DNA from: a bacterium | GTDB taxonomy: Bacteria > UBA8248 > JACPRG01 > G963555815 | Assembly (NCBI GenBank): GCA_965261595.1 | Contig: CBDHDG010000005.1 | Coordinates: forward strand, 320,001-384,000 | Length of the DNA: 64,000 nt | Direction: 5' to 3' | In this document: positions 1,027-25,373 of the stretch, piece after piece | How positions within the stretch are numbered: position 1 is the stretch's first letter | How the letters are laid out: the number at the start of each line of letters is the position of its first letter | Translations under genes and position numbers: made by a program | The notes under the pieces: generated by a model | What the model saw: the letters and a program-made list of their open reading frames with translations, nothing else | Told to the model about the DNA's origin: nothing | The model's database searches: none

Positions 1027-2063
1027 ACGGGGACTCCGGATTGGGCGAGGCCCGCGGTTTCCGGGAGCCCCGCCATCAGATTCATGTTCTGAACCGCCGC
1101 GCCGGCGGCGCCCTTGGTCAGATTGTCCAGGGCGGAGACCACCACGACCCGTCCGGTGCGGTCGTCCAGCGCGAAACCCAGGTCGGTGAAGTTCGAGCCC
1201 CGCACTTGGTCCGTGGAAGGGACCCGGCCCGAGGGCATGAGGCGCACGAAAGGCTCGCCGCCGTAGGCCCGCTCGAAGGACGCGTCCAGCTCGGCGGCGC
1301 CGACCCCCTCTTTACGCCGGGCGTAACAGGTGCTCAGGATCCCGCGGTTCATGGGGACCAGATGAGGCGCAAAGGTCAAGGTGACGTCCGACCCCGCGGC
1401 GCCGGAGAGCTCCTGCTCGATCTCCGGCGTGTGCCGATGGGCGCCGATGGAATAGGCCCGGACGCTCTCGTTGACTTCGCAGAAGGAAAACTCCACTTTG
1501 TCTTGTCTCCCGGCGCCGGAAACCCCCGATTTCGCGTCCACCACAATCGAGGCCGGCTCGATGAGGCCGTCGCGCAGAAGCGGCGCCAGGGCCAGGATGG
1601 CCCCGGTCGGATAGCACCCCGGATTGGCCACCAGGCGGGCGTCGCGAATCGCCTCCCGGTGAAGCTCGGGCAGACCGTAGACGGCCTCGTCCAGACGGGC
1701 CGCGTCGGTGTGTTTCGTCCCATACCAGGTTTCGTACACGTCCGGAAGCTTGAGGCGGTAATCGGCGCTGAAATCGACGACTTTTTTCCCGGACGCCAGG
1801 ACGGCCGGGACCGCATTCATCGCGGTTCGGTGGGGGAGGGCGGTGAAGACCAGATCGGCCCCTTCGCCGACGGTCGCCGGGTCCAGGGGCGCAAGCTTCG
1901 CTTCGATGACTCCCTGGAAGGCCGGCAGAACTTCGCCCAGCGTCCGGCCCGCAAACGTCTCCGAGGTGAGGCGGACGATCTCCACCTGAGGATGGGCGGC
2001 CAGGATACGCAACAGTTCGCCTCCCGCGTATCCGGTGGCGCCCGCAACAGCAATGCGCAGCAT
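1023..2063 (-). CDS. argC: N-acetyl-gamma-glutamyl-phosphate reductase
   Basis: GATGYAG Rossmann motif, ANPGCYPT catalytic Cys, SGVSGAG, DNLTKGAAG. Confidence 0.97.
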   Translation of the reverse strand: MLRIAVAGATGYAGGELLRILAAHPQVEIVRLTSETFAGRTLGEVLPAFQGVIEAKLAPLDPATVGEGADLVFTALPHRTAMNAVPAVLASGKKVVDFSADYRLKLPDVYETWYGTKHTDAARLDEAVYGLPELHREAIRDARLVANPGCYPTGAILALAPLLRDGLIEPASIVVDAKSGVSGAGRQDKVEFSFCEVNESVRAYSIGAHRHTPEIEQELSGAAGSDVTLTFAPHLVPMNRGILSTCYARRKEGVGAAELDASFERAYGGEPFVRLMPSGRVPSTDQVRGSNFTDLGFALDDRTGRVVVVSALDNLTKGAAGAAVQNMNLMAGLPETAGLAQSGVPV

Positions 2064-15365: not shown

Positions 15366-17681
15366 ATGGCGCAGGCTTCCATCGGGACAAGGGTTCCCCG
15401 GCTGGACGGCGGCGAGAAGGCGATGGGCAAGGCCCAGTACCTGGCGGACCTGAAGCTGACGGGGATGACGCAGGTCCGGTTCGTCAAGTCCCCCCTGGCC
15501 CACGCCCGGATCAAATCCATCGACACCTCCAAGGCCGAGGCCCTTCCGGGCGTCGTGGCCGTCGTCACGCACGAAGACGTCCCCGACACGCTCGTCGGCG
15601 AGGTCGTCATGGACCAGCGGCTCTTCGCCAAGGAGAAGGTCCGTTACGTAGGCGACATCGTGGCCGCGGTGGCGGCGGAGGATCTGGACACCGCCAACCG
15701 GGCCGTCGAGCTCGTGAAGATCGATTACGAGGAGCTGCCGGCCGTCTTCTCGGTCGAGGAAGCGTTGAAAGAAGACGCCCCCGAGCTTCACGAGGAGTAT
15801 CAGAGCTACGAGACCATCCCGCCCGCGGCGGATCCGCACAAGATGATGACCGGCCGGAACATCTGCTGGAGGGGGATGATCAAGAAGGGGGACGTCGAGA
15901 AGGGGTTCAGCGAGGCGGACAAGGTTGTGGAAGACCACTTCGACATCCCGGCCGCCCAGGGCTCTCCCATCGAGACCCACGGCGTCGTGGCGGAGCCGGC
16001 CCGGGACGGTCGGGGAGTGACGGTCTGGACCTCCACGCAGGTGCCCTTCGGCGTCCGGGAGGTGACGGCCCACGGCCTCCACCTGCCCATTTCGAGCGTG
16101 CGCGTCATCGCCCCCACCGTCGGCGGCGGCTTCGGCTCCAAGTGCCAGCCCTGGGTGGAGCCGATGGTCGCGGCCGTCGCCATCAAGGCCGGCCGGCCGG
16201 CCCGGTACGTGATGAGCCGGGAGGAGGAGTTCGAGATCACCCAGCCGCGGCACCCGATGACGGTGATCGTGAAATCCGGGGTGATGAACGACGGGAAGAT
16301 TGTGGCCCGCCACGTCCGCATCATGATGAACACCGGCCACAGCGTGATGCTGGCGCCCATCATGGTGTCTCTGGTCGCCCATGTGGGCGGAGCGCCTTAC
16401 AACATCCCCAACCTGTGGGTGCAGTGCGTCGCCGCGTTCACGAACCTGCCGAGCTTCTCCCTTGTCCGGGGGCCGGGCGGACCCCAGGCGACCTTCGCCG
16501 TCGAGCAGCACACCGACCGTCTGGCCGACGCCGTCGGCATGGACCGGGTTGATTTCCGGATGAACAACTGCGTCGGCCCGGGCGACAAAGGCCCCTCCGG
16601 ACAGGAGCTGGGCGGCGTGGGTCTCAAAGAGGCCCTCCAGAAGGTGAAGGAATCCATTGGGTGGGGGCAAGACCGGCCCGAGGGGCGCGGCGTCGGCGTC
16701 GCCATCGGCTGGTACTCGACCCTCATCGGGATGGGCTCCTCGGCCACTGTGTCCCTGAACGAGGACGGCTCGGTCAAGGTGACGACGGGATTCGTGGACC
16801 ACGGGACCGGGAATGTGTACGGCGGTCTGCCCATCTTCATCTCCAACGAGCTGGGCGTGGACATGGACAAGATCCACATCACGAGCGGCGACACCGAGAC
16901 GGGGCCCTGGGACTACGGGACCGTGGGCAGCCGCTCGACGTACAACCACGTCCGGGCGGTGGGCGCGGCCATCGAGGATATCAAGGGGCAGCTTCGCGAG
17001 CGGGCCGCCGGCATGCTCGAAGCCGATCCCAAAGAGATGGACATTCAGGACGGCAAGGTGTTCGTCCGGAGCACGCCGGACAAGGCCATTCCCGTGGGTG
17101 TGCTCTGCGCGACGGCGGGCAAGCCGGGCTTCCCCGGCCCCATTGTCGCCAACGGCTCCTACAACGGGACCCCCTGGCCGCCCGGGGAGGACGTGGAGGT
17201 CGCGTTGGCCCTCACCTCTTTCGGGGAGCCCCCCTTCGTGGCCCAGGCCGCGGAGGTCGAAGTCGACCCGGAGACCGGGAACATCAAGGTCCTGAAGATC
17301 GCCTCGGCCGTGGACGCCGGATTCGCCCTCAACCCCATCGGCCTGGAAGGGCAGGTCGAGGGCGGGACGATACAGTCTCTGGGCCAGGCCCTGACCGAGC
17401 GGATGGTCTTCGACGACAAGGGCCGCCTGCTCAACGCGAGCTTCCTGGACTATAAGCTCCCCCTGGCCCCGGACATCCCGGAGTTCGACACGATTGTTGT
17501 CGAGAGCCAGGCCGATCAGGGAGCGATGGGGACGAAGGGGGTCGGCGAGGCGCCGGTCGTGGCGACGGCGGCAGCCATCGCGGGCGCGGTGAGCGCGGCC
17601 ACGGGCGCGACGTTCGACAAGCTCCCGCTGATGCCGGAATATGTCCTGGAACGCATCGAGGCCGCATCAGCTACGGTGTAG
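15366..17681 (+). CDS. Xanthine dehydrogenase family molybdopterin-binding subunit
   Basis: HARIKSID, GGGFGSK, VRGPGGPQ, GQVEGG, KGVGE. No AYxCSFR motif, so not form I CO dehydrogenase. Confidence 0.93.
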   Translation: MAQASIGTRVPRLDGGEKAMGKAQYLADLKLTGMTQVRFVKSPLAHARIKSIDTSKAEALPGVVAVVTHEDVPDTLVGEVVMDQRLFAKEKVRYVGDIVAAVAAEDLDTANRAVELVKIDYEELPAVFSVEEALKEDAPELHEEYQSYETIPPAADPHKMMTGRNICWRGMIKKGDVEKGFSEADKVVEDHFDIPAAQGSPIETHGVVAEPARDGRGVTVWTSTQVPFGVREVTAHGLHLPISSVRVIAPTVGGGFGSKCQPWVEPMVAAVAIKAGRPARYVMSREEEFEITQPRHPMTVIVKSGVMNDGKIVARHVRIMMNTGHSVMLAPIMVSLVAHVGGAPYNIPNLWVQCVAAFTNLPSFSLVRGPGGPQATFAVEQHTDRLADAVGMDRVDFRMNNCVGPGDKGPSGQELGGVGLKEALQKVKESIGWGQDRPEGRGVGVAIGWYSTLIGMGSSATVSLNEDGSVKVTTGFVDHGTGNVYGGLPIFISNELGVDMDKIHITSGDTETGPWDYGTVGSRSTYNHVRAVGAAIEDIKGQLRERAAGMLEADPKEMDIQDGKVFVRSTPDKAIPVGVLCATAGKPGFPGPIVANGSYNGTPWPPGEDVEVALALTSFGEPPFVAQAAEVEVDPETGNIKVLKIASAVDAGFALNPIGLEGQVEGGTIQSLGQALTERMVFDDKGRLLNASFLDYKLPLAPDIPEFDTIVVESQADQGAMGTKGVGEAPVVATAAAIAGAVSAATGATFDKLPLMPEYVLERIEAASATV

Positions 17682-18753: not shown

Positions 18754-19041
18754 CTTGGGGATCTCCTTTCGTCGTCGGGGTCGGGGGGGGGGGGGGAGCG
18801 CCCGATCGTTTGATCGCCGGAGAGGGTCAATGCGGATCGGCGATTGTGACAGAAGCCGGGGAGATGACACCAGAGGTTGCGGGTCTCCGTCAAGGGCTTC
18901 CACGGGAGGGGGAGAGGGAGAGAAGGGGGAGGACGGCGCGCCGGTTGACGGAAAGGGCGGCGAGGCCGGATACTCCGTACGGTTGATTCGGGGTCCGTGT
19001 CGGAATTTCGCGGACTTTCAGCGTTGGACAGGAGCGGCTTG

Positions 19042-20307
19042 ATGAAAAACCGCTGGGTCATCGTTTTCTCCGCGGCCGTCATCACGACGGTGGGCTTCGG
19101 GAGCCGGGGCGTTTTCGGCGTTTTTTACGTCGAGATGTTGAGAGAGTTCGAGTGGAACCGGGCCGACCTGGCGGGGGTGTATTCCCTGGGTCTGCTCATC
19201 ATGGGGGCCGGGGGCGCGTTGGCGGGCGCGCTCGTGCGGTTTCTCGGCCCGAAGCGGTTCTATCTCCTCGGCGGGCTCCTCGTCGGGCTGACCTTCTACC
19301 TGGCGAGCCGGGTGGAGTCCCTGCTCGACGTGTACCTCGCCTGGGGGGTGTTGGGCGGATTGACCCTGGCCGCCTTGGGGCCCGCTTCGGCCCAGGGGCT
19401 GGTGGCCCGGTGGTTCACGACGCGGAGAGGGCTGGGCATCGGCCTGGTCGGGGCGGGGACGGGGGGCGGGAGCCTCATCCTCGCGCCGTTGGCCCAGACA
19501 TTCATCGACTCGTACGGCTGGCGCGGCGGTTTGGTGGCCGTCGGCGTGATTTCGTTCATCGTGGTTGCCGTCGTAGGCGTGGTGTTCATGCGGGAGCCGC
19601 CGACTGAGATTGCCTCGCAGTCTCCGCCCAAGCCCGAGACCGGCCCGCCCGCCGGAGGGGAGGTGAGGGGGGGAAGCCCGGCCGCGGAGTCCGCCGCTGT
19701 ATGGACCCTGAGCGGCGCCCTTCGGACCGGCCCCATCTGGACGATCTCCATCGCGTGGCTCGGCCTGGCCACATCCATTCATTTCATCGGAACGCATTTT
19801 GTCGCGTTGACCGTGGGTGTGGGGCATCCGGCGCTGTTCGGGTCGACCATCCTGGCGCTCAGCGGCGTGATCTCCATTGTGAACCGTGTGGTCGGCGGGG
19901 GGCTCTCGGACCGGATCGGGCGCGTGAAGACCTTTGTGACCGGGGCGTTCGTGGCGGCCCTCGGCCTGGCCGTCCTGTTTTTCCACCAAACGCCGGATCG
20001 GGTGTGGGACCTCTATCTCTTCGCGGTTCTGTTCGGCGGGGGGATCGGCGCGATGACCGGGCAGACGACGGCCCTGGCGTCGGACATGTACCGGGGAAAG
20101 AATTTCGGGACCATCCTGGGGTTCATCACCATCGGTTTCGGCCTCGGCGGCGCGGCGGGCGCCTGGCTGGGCGGGCTTGTCTACGACCTCACGGGCGGCT
20201 ACCGCGTGGTCGTCGCGTATGAATTCTTCGCCCTGATCATCTCGGCCCTCTTCTTCATCGCCGCCGGCCGGGCTATCCGGAGGTATCAGGGGGTGTCACG
20301 GGTGTAG
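19042..20307 (+). CDS. MFS transporter (OFA/MCT-like)
   Basis: About 12 hydrophobic helices, WFTTRRGLGIG, LSDRIGR motif. Confidence 0.9.
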   Translation: MKNRWVIVFSAAVITTVGFGSRGVFGVFYVEMLREFEWNRADLAGVYSLGLLIMGAGGALAGALVRFLGPKRFYLLGGLLVGLTFYLASRVESLLDVYLAWGVLGGLTLAALGPASAQGLVARWFTTRRGLGIGLVGAGTGGGSLILAPLAQTFIDSYGWRGGLVAVGVISFIVVAVVGVVFMREPPTEIASQSPPKPETGPPAGGEVRGGSPAAESAAVWTLSGALRTGPIWTISIAWLGLATSIHFIGTHFVALTVGVGHPALFGSTILALSGVISIVNRVVGGGLSDRIGRVKTFVTGAFVAALGLAVLFFHQTPDRVWDLYLFAVLFGGGIGAMTGQTTALASDMYRGKNFGTILGFITIGFGLGGAAGAWLGGLVYDLTGGYRVVVAYEFFALIISALFFIAAGRAIRRYQGVSRV

Positions 20308-20914: not shown

Positions 20915-21664
20915 ATGAGCGGAGACGTCGTGAATGATTTTCTGAAGACCTTCGGCAGAACGCCGGATGAGCTTTTCGAGGGAGAAAAGGAGTTCATCGA
21001 AGATTGGCACAAGGACTACAACACCGACCGGCATCACGCTTTCGAGATTCAGGAGGAAGAGTGCGCCCTCATTGTGGTCGACCTCCAAAATGACTTCGTC
21101 GCCCCGAACTCGCCCATCTGGGTCCCCGAGGCCCTGCGGCAGATTCCCCGAAACAAGAGGTTGATCGAAGCCGCCCGCCGGCTTGGCGTCCCGGTCATCT
21201 ACACCGCCCACACCTTCAACGCCGACTGCTACGCCGATTTCCGAGAGTTTTCGGATGCGCACCGCGATGGCGCCCTCATTGAGGGTTCCAAGGGAACTCA
21301 AATTTATCCGGAAGTCTCCCCGGAGGAAGGGGAGCGCGTCATCGACAGCAAGCACAACTACGACGCCTTTGCCGGGACCGATCTGGATTATGTCTTGCGC
21401 GACCACGGAACGAAGACCTGCGTCGTCTGCGGAACGGTGACCAACTTCTGCTGTGAGTCAACGGCGCGCAGCGCATACTTCAAGAACTACCATGTCGTCT
21501 TCGTGGAGGACTGCGTCTCATCTGACAATCCCTACGCCCACGAGTCCACCATCCGCACCTTGCGGCGTGGTTTCGCCCGGGTCTTGAAGAGCGACGAGTT
21601 AATCAACATCTGGACGGAAGGCGATGACCTTTACGCCAAGGCCCGGAAGGCTAGGGAGACCTGA
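20915..21664 (+). CDS. Cysteine hydrolase (isochorismatase/nicotinamidase family)
   Basis: D-K-C triad: VVDLQNDF, SKHNYDAF, GTVTNFCCESTAR; GGAGG RBS. Confidence 0.92.
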   Translation: MSGDVVNDFLKTFGRTPDELFEGEKEFIEDWHKDYNTDRHHAFEIQEEECALIVVDLQNDFVAPNSPIWVPEALRQIPRNKRLIEAARRLGVPVIYTAHTFNADCYADFREFSDAHRDGALIEGSKGTQIYPEVSPEEGERVIDSKHNYDAFAGTDLDYVLRDHGTKTCVVCGTVTNFCCESTARSAYFKNYHVVFVEDCVSSDNPYAHESTIRTLRRGFARVLKSDELINIWTEGDDLYAKARKARET

Positions 21665-23567
21665 TTTTTCGGCCGGGACCTTTCTGCGGATCCATGCATC
21701 CAACGCGTCTCCTCTAGGCCGGCCCTTCTTTTTCTCTAAGTCCCTTCAGGATTTTCTGAGGCGTGACAGGCAGGTCCTTCAAGCGGAGGCCGACAGCGTC
21801 GTAGACGGCGTTGGCAATCACGGCACCGCAAGCGTTCAAGGCGCATTCGGAGCAGCCTTTCGCGCCGAAGGGGCCGTTCGGGTCGTTGGACTCCACAAGG
21901 ATGGAGGTGAAATTCGGCAGCCCCTCCGCCTTTGGCACGGTGTAATCGGCCAAGTTGCCATTGACAAACTGCCCGCCATCCAGCACGGGATGCTCGAATA
22001 GGGCCAATCCGAGTCCCTGAGCGATTTCTCCGTGAATTTGGCCCTCGACAGTGAGCGGATTGATGGCTCGGCCGAGGTCGTCGGCCACGACAATGTCCAC
22101 CAGCCGGACCCCTCCCGTTTCCGTATCCACCTCGACAACGGCGGCGACGCACGCGAAGGAGGCGGCGGCCGTATTCCTGCCGTAATGAGTCTCCGAATCG
22201 GCCACCTCGGTCGGCGGATCCCAACTTGCCTGGACGGAGACGCGATCCCCCCCTGGATGAGAGCGGTCCCCCATAACGACCTCGCTGAGGAGGATCCTCT
22301 TTTCAGGAGCGCCCTTGTTGAAGATCACGCCCCCCTCGATTGCCAGGTCTGCCGGGTCGGCCTCGAGTTGCTCCGCCGCCATCCCGAGCAGACGTTCCCG
22401 GCAGGCAATGGCTGCCTTCCGGACAGCGTTTCCCGCGATCATGGTCAGACGGCTCGCGTATCCCCCAAGGCAGAAGGGTGCGTTTTCCGTATCCGCTTCC
22501 GCGACCTCTACGTCCTGAAAATCCAGGCCCAGCTCTTCGGCCGCAATTTGCGCAAGAACCGTCTTGGCCCCTTGACCCAGCTCCCCTTCGCCGCAGATGA
22601 TCTTGGCCAGGCCGTCTTCGGTGACCTCCACGATCGCCGCTGAACCGTCCCACCCCTCCTCGGCTTCCACGCTGACGTGCTGCCGGATGGAAGTCGAGTG
22701 GATGGCGCATGCCAGGCCCACGCCTGTCCGAAGCGTCCCTTTTTTTAAGGCTGACCGACGTTCCTTCCAGTTCACGGCAGTCATCGTCTTGCGAATGCAC
22801 TCGTCGATCGCGCAGCTCTCCATCTTCCAGCCGTGTATGCTGGTGTCTCCCTGCCGGATCACGTTTCGGAGGCGAATCTCTGCGGGGTCCATTCCCAGTT
22901 TTTCCGCGAGCACATCCAGGTGGGATTCCAGGGCGAAGGCCATCTGCGGGTTGCCGAATCCCCGGAAAGCCCCCGCCGGAAGGAGATTGGTATAGGCCAG
23001 ATAGGCATCGGTTCTGATGTTCTCCATCCGGTACAGGGAATCTATCCGCACGGCCATGTGCATGATGACCTCCGGCGAAAGGCCCGAACAAGCCCCGTTG
23101 TTGCCGTAGATTCGCGTCTGTTTTGCCGCGATGGTTCCGTCTTTGCGAAGCCCCATCTTGAGGTAGGTCTTGGTGGGCATCCGGGGCCGCGAGGCCCCGA
23201 AATCATCCAGCCGCGTATTGAGGAACCGCACAGGCCGGCCCGTCTTGAGCGCAATGAAGGCGGTGATCACGGCCGTCGCGTCCTCGTTCAGCTTCCCGCC
23301 GAATCCTCCTCCGATGTGGGGCTGGATTACCCGGAGCTTCGTGGGGGGGAAATTCAGGGCCTCCGAGACTCGTGCGCGCGTGAAGAAGATGGACTGGGTG
23401 GGCGCATAGAGGGTCAGGCGGCCATGGCTGTCGATATCCGCCAGGGCCCCAAGGGGCTCCATGTAGGATTGAAATCGTGATTATGCCTTTGACGCAGTAA
23501 GACACAAGATATAGGTGCGATTTTGAGACACTACATGTTGTGGTTATCCAACAGGAGGGGGTCACTT

Positions 23568-23783
23568 TTAGGGACCCGTGGAACCACATATCCTCCCATT
23601 GATGATGGCTGGTGGCCCGACGTAAGAGCCCCGAATTTCGAGTGGGATGCGTTTCTTCGGCGGTTTCTTATTCCTTATCCCCATCAAGTAGAAACCCGCA
23701 TAGAAGAGAAGATCAATAACCCTAGAGGCTGCTTCGGAGATGAACCATTCAAAAACGTCAAATCCTTCGCATTTTGCTTCCAT
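23568..23783 (-). CDS. Small hypothetical cargo protein (71 aa)
   Basis: Strong Shine-Dalgarno GAAGGAGG 9 nt before ATG; hydrophobic stretch then basic KKPPKKR. Confidence 0.5.
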   Translation of the reverse strand: MEAKCEGFDVFEWFISEAASRVIDLLFYAGFYLMGIRNKKPPKKRIPLEIRGSYVGPPAIINGRICGSTGP

Positions 23784-23822
23784 TGCCCCAGTCCTCCTTC
23801 AAGGTTGGGTGGTGATGGAACC

Positions 23823-23854
23823 GCAGCGCCAGGGGCGGGATCCCCTGGCGCTGC
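23823..23854. terminator. GC-rich hairpin between the two cargo ORFs
   Basis: GCAGCGCCAGGGG-cgggat-CCCCTGGCGCTGC, perfect 13-bp stem; no clear U-tail on the minus strand. Confidence 0.45.
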
Positions 23855-23876
23855 ACTTGTAAATCTTATTTTCCAC

Positions 23877-24227
23877 TTATTTGCACGAGATGAACTCGCA
23901 CAACGTCTCAAAAACCTTGAATTCCCCTTCAAAACGGAAAGTCGTAGAGCCAGGGATGCTCTTCAGGTATTGGAATCCTTTTGGATGCTCACTCACCATG
24001 AAAATACGCCATTTCTCCTTTGCGTTTCGGTATCCAAGTTTATACAAAGCTACCAAATCGCGATCGTCCAACATGCGAAGTATGAGTTTTCTTCGTTCCA
24101 AATCCACATAAGCGGGGCTGTACACCGCACCTTTTCCGATAAAACAGGCCTTGTTGGATTCTCCAGCCATGACGGCGGAAGATGCGATGAGGGCAGTTGT
24201 AAGTATGCAACCGCCGATAGTACGCAT
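23877..24227 (-). CDS. Hypothetical exported cargo protein (116 aa)
   Basis: Internal ATG gives MRTIGGCILTTALIASSAVMA, a signal-peptide-like N-terminus, then a globular-looking domain. Confidence 0.6.
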   Translation of the reverse strand: MRTIGGCILTTALIASSAVMAGESNKACFIGKGAVYSPAYVDLERRKLILRMLDDRDLVALYKLGYRNAKEKWRIFMVSEHPKGFQYLKSIPGSTTFRFEGEFKVFETLCEFISCK

Positions 24228-25373
24228 GGGCAGACCCCCAGAAAATCGAGGTTGACACGGGCTTGGGGATTTGCTACAAGGAGGGTCTGTGAGGTCCTCT
24301 CTTGTAGCAACGCCCCGGGGTTCCCTCGGGGCTTCCACCCTTTGAAGTTCCATATACCACATGTAGTGGGTCGGATTCAATTTTCGAGGGACCACCATAT
24401 CTTGTGTCTTACTGCGTCAAGGGCATAATCACGATTGAAATTGGTGAGGCGTGGTGTAGCTGTCCTCGTGGGTGACAGCCGATTCCGCGAAGCCCCGCTC
24501 GACATCGCCCCGGCGGATTCGGACCTCCCGGGCGAGGTTCTGACTCCCTTCGTTGACCTGCGGCGCACTGGGAGCGAGGGCCTCCTCGGGGTCAAAGACG
24601 GCGGGAAGCTCCTCATAGTCAACTTCCAGCTGCTCCAGGGCCTCTCGGGCGGCTTCTTCGCTCTTGCCCGCCACCGCCGCCACTTCCTCACCCACATATC
24701 GGACCTTGCCCGACGCCAGGACCTTTTGATCCTTATGAAAGACGCCCCACCGGGTCTTCGGCGCGTCTTCTCCCGTGAGGATGGCCACCACCCCAGGGAC
24801 CCGGGCGGCCTTCTCCGTATGGATCCGCAAGATCCGCGCATGGGCGTGAGGGCTTCGAAGGACCTTGGCATGAGTCATCCGGGGAAGGGCCATGTCGCCG
24901 ACATAACCGGCATTTCCAAGAGCTTTCTCCGGTGCGTCGATTTGCGGGATAGGCCTGCCGACGACCTGTAGCCTCTGCATCCTTATGCTCCTACGCGGAA
25001 TTCCTTCTCTTTGGACATCGAATCACGCAACAGTCACGACTCTCCCCTTGGGTTCAGAGACACCGCATAACCGTCTCTGAATGCTCTTTGTTCCTTCGAA
25101 ATGCGGGATTGATGTGGCGGAATGATAGCATATTCGACGAAGGGTCTCGACTTCTTCCTTCCGTGGGTGAAGTACAAAAATTTGTGTAGAATCTTCGACA
25201 GGGTGTCATCCTATCGGGGCAAGCTCGACCCGGTCCTTCATCAAAAAAATGCCGGGATTGACGCGGCGGCCAAAACAGAGGAAGCTGAAAAATTAACGAA
25301 TGCCGCCGCTAGATTTCAAGAAGAAACGGGACATTCCCGACCCCGTTGCGGCATCGACGTTAAGGGGATTGCG

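Follow-up and report, generated by a model that had tools for sequence, protein, structure and literature searches.

A probable IS1595-derived mobile insertion cassette with an exchangeable small-gene slot interrupts a Mo-hydroxylase gene

Introduction

As far as excerpts of PMC3913671 and PMC3129680 describe them, mobile insertion cassettes (MICs) have inverted repeats and a target duplication, lack a transposase, and are mobilised in trans by a cognate insertion sequence (IS). Mobilisation in trans by the transposase of the parent IS was shown for MIC231 of the Bacillus cereus group (Chen et al. 1999; De Palmenaer et al. 2004; as reported in an excerpt of PMC3913671). Elements of the IS1595 family, according to the available part of PMC8101967, produce 8-bp duplications and carry one transposase gene, whose DDE_Tnp_IS1595 domain is usually accompanied by an N-terminal Zn ribbon or finger. 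Here we describe a 958-bp cassette with IS1595-like ends that interrupts the large-subunit gene of a molybdenum (Mo) hydroxylase. It lies in a 64,000-nucleotide stretch of bacterial DNA (the window), which spans positions 320001-384000 of contig C5 in a genome (G000) of 6.17 Mb and 7 contigs. Coordinates are window positions unless a contig is named.

We observed two inverted repeats, no transposase gene, a target duplication, and genes unrelated to transposition in the cassette, the sequence features by which a MIC is recognised. The traits of an IS1595 insertion sequence are shared in part: the 8-bp duplication and family-like ends are present, and the DDE transposase is absent. Our preferred reading, to which we assign a probability of roughly 85%, is that the cassette is a non-autonomous MIC derived from the IS1595 family and moved in trans by a related transposase. 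It resembles MIC231 in its IS-type repeats, lack of a transposase gene, target duplication, non-transposition genes, and modular content (PMC3913671 and PMC3129680, in the portions available). It differs in parentage, which is IS231/IS4 for MIC231 and IS1595 here (8-bp duplication), and mobilisation in trans is something we infer for the present cassette. It differs further in its orphan small-protein cargo, conserved leader, small chassis gene, and single exchangeable slot.

Two other kinds of element invite comparison. Passenger-gene-carrying members of the IS1595 family ('transporter IS'; Siguier, Gagnevin and Chandler 2009) have the same type of ends and the 8-bp duplication, as described in excerpts of PMC3129680 and PMC8101967. 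Whereas IS1595 members encode DDE_Tnp_IS1595, the cassette has this domain in no frame, which makes it a derivative of the family rather than a member. MITEs, or miniature inverted-repeat transposable elements, in the available part of PMC3129680, are likewise non-autonomous and multi-copy, with IS-derived ends and dependence on a cognate transposase. However, MITEs are short and non-coding, whereas the cassette is 958 bp long and has genes conserved at the protein level.

MICs are a known kind of element. What this locus adds is a site seen both with and without the insertion, an organisation into slot and chassis, and an antisense frame free of stops. It documents an active transposase-less cassette of IS1595 type whose slot exchanges small genes on a conserved chassis. 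Such cassettes spread uncharacterised small, exported-looking proteins within a genome rich in IS1595 transposase genes (dozens). The cargo proteins are missed by protein databases because gene callers annotate the long antisense frame.

Results

The insertion is recent, precise, and polymorphic

The cassette, its boundaries, and the interrupted gene are laid out as follows.

23476..24433, unstranded: whole cassette (MIC-1 type A), 958 bp, 49.5% G+C compared to 63.0% for the genome
23468..23475, unstranded: left copy of the 8-bp target-site duplication, ATTGAAAT
24434..24441, unstranded: right copy of the 8-bp target-site duplication, ATTGAAAT
23476..23512, plus strand: left terminal inverted repeat (TIR), 37 bp
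24397..24433, minus strand: right TIR, 37 bp
24429..24980, minus strand: 5' fragment of the Mo-hydroxylase large-subunit gene, 183 aa, PF01315 (3.2e-31)
21714..23462, minus strand: 3' fragment of the same gene, 582 aa, PF02738 (2.6e-67) and PF20256 (1e-71)

An earlier note on this DNA (the original prediction) had proposed 37-bp TIRs with one mismatch and an 8-bp duplication. We observed exactly this: the TIRs matched at 36/37 bases, with the sole mismatch at position 13 (T vs C), and ATTGAAAT stood on both sides. The original prediction had also likened the ends to C.TGATT/atTAT, given there as typical of IS1595-family elements. A repeat finder gives a 9-base direct repeat here, where a G precedes both octamers; all other copies in the genome show 8.

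The 183-aa fragment contains the a/b-hammerhead domain of aldehyde oxidase/xanthine dehydrogenase and ends with ...HQFQS at a TGA within the right TIR. The 582-aa fragment, with both Mo-cofactor-binding domains, begins with MEP, 14 bases past the left end of the cassette. Excising the cassette together with one octamer copy gave ...HQFQS-YMEP... in frame (read from the sequence and the list of open reading frames, ORFs). We also considered host frames that cross the cassette, given that 958 + 8 = 966 = 3 x 322, and rejected them; every frame has a stop in its first 37 bases.

We compared window positions 23100-24800 with the assembled contigs of four public runs, in which a contig is evidence of presence and not of frequency. 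A 6219-bp contig (run X6) and a 10312-bp contig (run X7), from two studies, connect 23466 straight to 24433. They skip 966 bases (958 + 8), with 9 bases that fit either side, and differ from the window at 0 positions in the left flank and at 2-3 in the right flank. Because these contigs skip the cassette, an uninterrupted Mo-hydroxylase gene exists in near-identical strains, and the insertion is recent, precise, and polymorphic. The in-frame restoration of the Mo subunit (HQFQSYMEP) noted in the original prediction was borne out, and the empty-site alleles that it proposed to look for were found in these contigs.

The genome holds six full 958-bp type A copies (five identical, one with a single substitution), three identical type B copies of 1315 bp, and one type C copy of 958 bp whose middle differs. 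Remnants were also found: a right-end fragment of 221 bp, a solitary left end of 57 bp, and one left end that has diverged and is cut by an IS3-type element (D). Of the ten full copies, nine are each flanked by a distinct, perfect 8-bp duplication, and the tenth lies in a locally rearranged spot. The duplicated octamers contain 22 G/C in 72 bases (hand count, nine copies), whereas the genome as a whole has 63% G+C. Multiplication of the cassette here has been recent. It is not a chance pattern, because the 958 bp occur six times and the contigs skip exactly 966 bases. Run X5 yielded a contig with the C6:948396 copy, bearing its private substitution, and in runs X6 and X7 there were also variants, 85-95% identical, of the leader, the p71 region (both described below), and the ends.

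A conserved chassis with one exchangeable slot

Starting at the right end and following the minus strand, the cassette consists of the repeat, a leader, a slot gene that has a 3' hairpin of its own, a 71-aa gene preceded by a Shine-Dalgarno sequence, and the left repeat. Its internal features are listed here, together with a long open frame on the opposite strand.

24228..24396, minus strand: conserved leader, from the right TIR to the slot gene, with hairpins at 24265-24316 and 24312-24332
23877..24227, minus strand: pA, 116-aa slot gene, whose open frame continues upstream to 24398 (173 aa)
23823..23854, unstranded: intergenic G+C-rich hairpin with 13 perfect pairs (14 in the fold), z -4.17, no U-tail
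23568..23783, minus strand: p71, the 71-aa chassis ORF, with a GGAGGA Shine-Dalgarno sequence
23529..23541, unstranded: subterminal inverted motif that pairs with 24356-24368; 14-mer identical in the ends of a 908-bp family (described below)
23523..24428, plus strand: 301-aa antisense open frame with a TTG start, the frame annotated by gene callers

The two co-oriented ORFs (116 aa, and 71 aa with its Shine-Dalgarno sequence) and the hairpin between them had all been predicted, and all are present. The leader (~170 nt) was 99-100% identical among types A, B, and C, and its folds gave a z-score of -3.1 on the minus strand and one of -2.2 on the plus strand. p71 was present in the same three types. 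A broken, 43%-identical copy with an in-frame stop was found in the diverged element D, which is cut by an IS3-type element.

The slot holds pA in type A and pC (118 aa) in type C. These proteins were 41% identical over 85 aa (E 8e-20), despite DNA that has diverged beyond alignment. Both have a hydrophobic N-terminus (residues 3-22 in pA, 1-22 in pC) and a domain (~90 aa in pA) with a Cys at its start and another near its end. pA is predicted to be exported or membrane-anchored. Type B is a chimera carrying both slot genes: it follows type A to the fifth p71 codon, passes through a 6-base microhomology into pC without its hydrophobic N-terminus, and continues as type C. The sister cassettes with other cargo that had been foreseen exist, as type C (another slot gene) and type B (both genes); element X, whose ends are less similar, carries a methylase/Mrr gene (described below).

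p71 and the leader belong to a conserved chassis with one slot for exchangeable small genes. The original prediction of a mobile cassette that moves small uncharacterised genes fits the 116-aa slot gene, which is variable, but not the 71-aa gene, which belongs to the conserved chassis.

Relatives were sought beyond the genome. The plus-frame protein matched P0005, a 227-aa relative encoded on a 44-kb contig from a different assembly, which has the same flanks and a third, shorter middle. P0005 DNA was found in 0/50 other genomes of the class and in none of the JGI metagenomes. Among 50 other genomes of the phylum only G006, from another genus of the same family, matched the cassette, and it did so in the leader only. 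It carries a ~770-bp cassette (L032, about 948-1716) with IS1595-like ends, a leader 73% identical to element positions 776-865, and a gene for an unrelated CxxC...CxxC protein of 103 aa; in another copy (L031) the cassette is interrupted by an IS3-type element. In one leader hairpin of G006 a G-C pair is replaced by A-T, with both sides changed (read from the sequences; two sequences only). A tRNA seen by eye in the G006 cassette was not borne out by ARAGORN or Rfam.

A 19-base end pattern gave 8 hits in unrelated taxa when searched against one genome per species, compared to a chance expectation of ~9 (our own estimate), and a 26-base end pattern gave 0 hits in the JGI metagenomes. Rfam returned only sub-threshold miRNA and CRISPR-repeat noise on the cassette, and a consensus terminator scan of it found none.

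The cassette lacks a transposase, and related elements encode one

Searches of the 173-aa, 71-aa, and 301-aa ORFs gave nothing relevant in Pfam at E<=1 and no match in NCBIfam at E<=0.01. When three resident transposases were compared by tblastn with every frame of types A, B, and C, the best E was 0.12. The original prediction had seen no recognisable DDE transposase, which agrees with these searches; the internal ORFs do not match a decayed one either.

These results bear on whether the cassette could be an ordinary decayed IS, that is, an IS1595 remnant with an internal deletion whose ORFs are leftovers of the transposase. Such a remnant would explain the IS1595-type ends, the 8-bp duplications, and a size near that of a minimal IS. 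However, similarity to a transposase was found in no frame, and the slot paralogues are conserved as proteins while their DNA can no longer be aligned. The element is also still multiplying, with identical copies at different sites and an empty site. We consider a decayed IS extremely unlikely.

DDE_Tnp_IS1595 (PF12762) had 54 matches in the genome, 52 of them above the cut-off. We scanned the genome for ends with >=24/37 matches to the cassette end, and combined the result with the ORF lists. Three transposase-bearing types emerged, each with an 8-bp duplication and one passenger gene. Element Y (1751 bp) has ends that match those of the cassette at 30 and 28 of 37 bases, the outer 18 bases being identical. 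The corresponding values were 28 and 25 of 37 for element W (2101 bp), and 29 and 24 of 37 for element V (1815 bp, three copies). The Y transposase matched PF12762 (6.5e-37) and PF12760 (2.2e-12). All three transposases are 295-296 aa long, score 200-209 bits on NF033547 (cut-off 75), and are 73-81% identical to one another. With an IS1595 transposase and one passenger gene each, Y, W, and V are of the 'transporter IS' kind. An autonomous IS1595 element with the same ends had been predicted; the genome does contain autonomous elements with 8-bp duplications, but their ends agree with those of the cassette at only 24-30 of 37 bases.

The transposase of Y, W, or V is a candidate mobiliser of the cassette in trans. 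In the mechanism that we propose, the cassette would have retained ends recognised by an IS1595-type DDE transposase without keeping the transposase gene. The enzyme of a related full-length resident element (Y, W, or V type) would bind the 37-bp ends, and insertion would occur at A+T-rich targets through 8-bp staggered cuts. The cassette has a fixed chassis, made up of the ends, the ~170-nt, putatively structured leader, and p71, and one slot that takes different small genes.

Element X (C5:447433-450663, L057) has the ends nearest to those of the cassette (32 and 30 of 37) and no flanking duplication. Its cargo gene, interrupted by an IS3-type insertion, encodes a DNA methylase (PF01555) that also has an Mrr-type nuclease domain.

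A second transposase-less family of IS1595 type was found in the same genome. It is 908 bp long, occurs in 11 copies (C3:129361-130268 and ten more), and encodes a 160-aa membrane-protein ORF. It resembles the cassette in its ends (24-26 of 37), its 8-bp duplications, its lack of a transposase, and its single cargo gene. It differs in the remaining bases of its ends and in its cargo, and it lacks p71, the shared leader, and an antisense frame that is open from end to end. Several of its copies have mismatched flanking octamers that pair across copies (e.g. C6:1667271 with C7:905605). Because of this pairing, the data suggest that recombination between 908-bp copies rearranged the genome.

Further observations concern V, W, and Y. 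The W passenger gene (C6:703409-705509, L055, ORF 1302-2051, minus strand) matched the PADLOC candidate PDC-S42 (1.1e-40), DUF7946, and phrog_3243; W is thus an autonomous IS1595-type insertion sequence that carries a candidate defence gene. A 51-56-aa ORF divergent from the transposase start is 57% identical across V, W, and Y (L054 46-213 and L055 60-212, minus strand; L056 1539-1694, plus strand). A relationship of p71 to this small ORF was rejected (hhalign probability 0.07). In element Y, a 306-aa ORF (L056 638-1558, plus strand) lies fully antisense to the transposase gene, which has 0 TTA, CTA, or TCA codons compared to 4.8 expected, a weaker echo of the open antisense frame of the cassette.

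The minus strand is favoured as the coding strand

The minus-strand ORFs and the 301-aa plus-strand ORF are codon-aligned antisense partners. This raises the possibility that the cassette is autonomous, the plus ORF being a real gene, such as a new kind of transposase, and the minus ORFs its by-products. Stops in the plus frame are confined to element positions 3, 15, and 951, all within the TIRs, compared to 11-19 stops in the other plus frames. It is open in type B (420 aa) and type C (301 aa) as well, and gene callers choose it over pA.

Codon usage points the same way. The TTA, CTA, and TCA codons that would place stops in the plus frame were absent from pA, p71, and pC (0/305 codons, compared to 11.8 expected from positional composition). 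They made up 33/813 codons in the passenger genes of the 908-bp cassette and of V, W, and Y, which are similarly rich in A+T, and 17/2963 codons in seven host genes. The non-coding stretches were also stop-free in the plus frame (product of shuffle probabilities 0.0043).

Protein conservation, however, argues for the minus strand. When the middles of types A and C were aligned independently in each frame, the minus frame scored 66.6 bits and the long plus frame 25.8, the level of another, out-of-frame plus reading (25.0). The codon-aligned BLOSUM62 score of pA and pC was 195 on the minus strand vs 63 on the plus strand, and their differences at codon positions 1, 2, and 3 numbered 64, 43, and 74. 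The p71 region compared with the diverged copy D scored 63.9 bits in the minus frame and 48.9 in the plus frame. The sole substitution among the 958-bp copies (C6:948396) leaves the p71 protein unchanged but introduces a stop into the plus frame, which is also broken in one X7 variant and in the G006 relative. The plus-frame protein had no Pfam, NCBIfam, or Atlas match, and its comparison with the resident transposases went no further than the E of 0.12 given above. P0005, its only outside 'homologue', was found through its open frame and is a biased case. We favour the minus strand as the coding strand of the cassette, and regard an autonomous element as very unlikely.

The same stop and codon statistics could be combined with the clear minus-frame protein conservation if the minus strand codes and the plus frame is selected to be stop-free, either so that ribosomes can cover the transcript in both orientations, which would limit Rho-dependent polarity on host genes, or for an overlapping antisense product with important constant ends. 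The plus ORF starts at a TTG, and an AGGTG lies 4 bases upstream of it (read from the sequence). However, the pattern was noticed post hoc, and the chassis shared by A, B, and C leaves few independent stretches. One resident copy and one environmental variant each carry a single mutation that breaks the frame, and the 908-bp family has no such frame. As a replacement for the MIC reading, we judge this decidedly unlikely.

A related proposal, which we put forward as speculative and unlikely, is that the cassette is readable on both strands, with its real genes on the minus strand and the plus frame held stop-free by selection. The open plus frame might then be a gene that overlaps the others in antisense, or it might help ribosomes to stay on transcripts that cross the element in either orientation, an idea we rate as similarly unlikely. 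If true, insertions would be less polar, and with the leader, p71, and the slot the cassette would be a designed gene-delivery platform and not a chance deletion derivative.

Results that weigh against the MIC reading, and searches for cargo homologues

We return to the reading of the cassette as a non-autonomous MIC with minus-strand cargo. The following results weigh against it. The stop-free plus frame is left unexplained by it. No transposase-bearing element in the genome has the exact ends of the cassette, the best being Y (30 and 28 of 37), and because of this we only infer its mobilisation by a resident enzyme. The p71 variants are mostly non-synonymous (contigs in X6 and X7: 2 synonymous vs 6, and 1 vs 9), and on this account p71 appears less secure than pA as a constrained protein. 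Relatives of pA and pC numbered 0 among 5.8 billion clusters, and a two-sequence profile of pA and pC gave 0 hits against 1.84 billion representatives. AlphaFold2 of pA plus pC was unusable (pLDDT 43.5). A consensus promoter scan of the cassette found 0, compared to a mean of 0.8 in shuffles, and RNA run X20 gave only a 204-base contig on the flank (24509-24712).

The homologue searches with cargo proteins are weaker negatives than they appear, because protein collections contain the plus-frame ORF, which gene callers annotate, rather than pA. Among PDB sequences, pA and pC matched only NusG at E 0.073, which we treated as chance. The best Atlas score for the cargo was 0.85, with recognition 1761, and serves as a lead only. 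A homologue search with p71 returned only p71 itself, and PADLOC and PHROGs gave no match to pA, pC, or p71 at E<=0.1. An accessory role of pA at the surface or in phage exclusion is a doubtful guess, made solely because sister elements carry defence-type genes.

Context of the interrupted gene

The Mo-cofactor-binding domain (MoCoBD_1) had 74 matches in G000 at E<=1e-20, so that the interrupted gene is one of about 74 paralogues. The nearest intact one noted, of 771 aa, is at 15366-17681 (plus strand), at a distance of 6 kb. Because of this redundancy, disruption of one Mo-hydroxylase copy is probably of little cost to the host. The N-terminal fragment of the interrupted gene had >60 matches in each of three relatives. 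Large subunits of Mo-hydroxylases (xanthine dehydrogenase family) are hugely expanded in G000 and in its relatives G001, G003, and G006. Between the intact paralogue and the interrupted gene lie an MFS transporter (18997-20307) and an isochorismatase-family gene (20915-21664).

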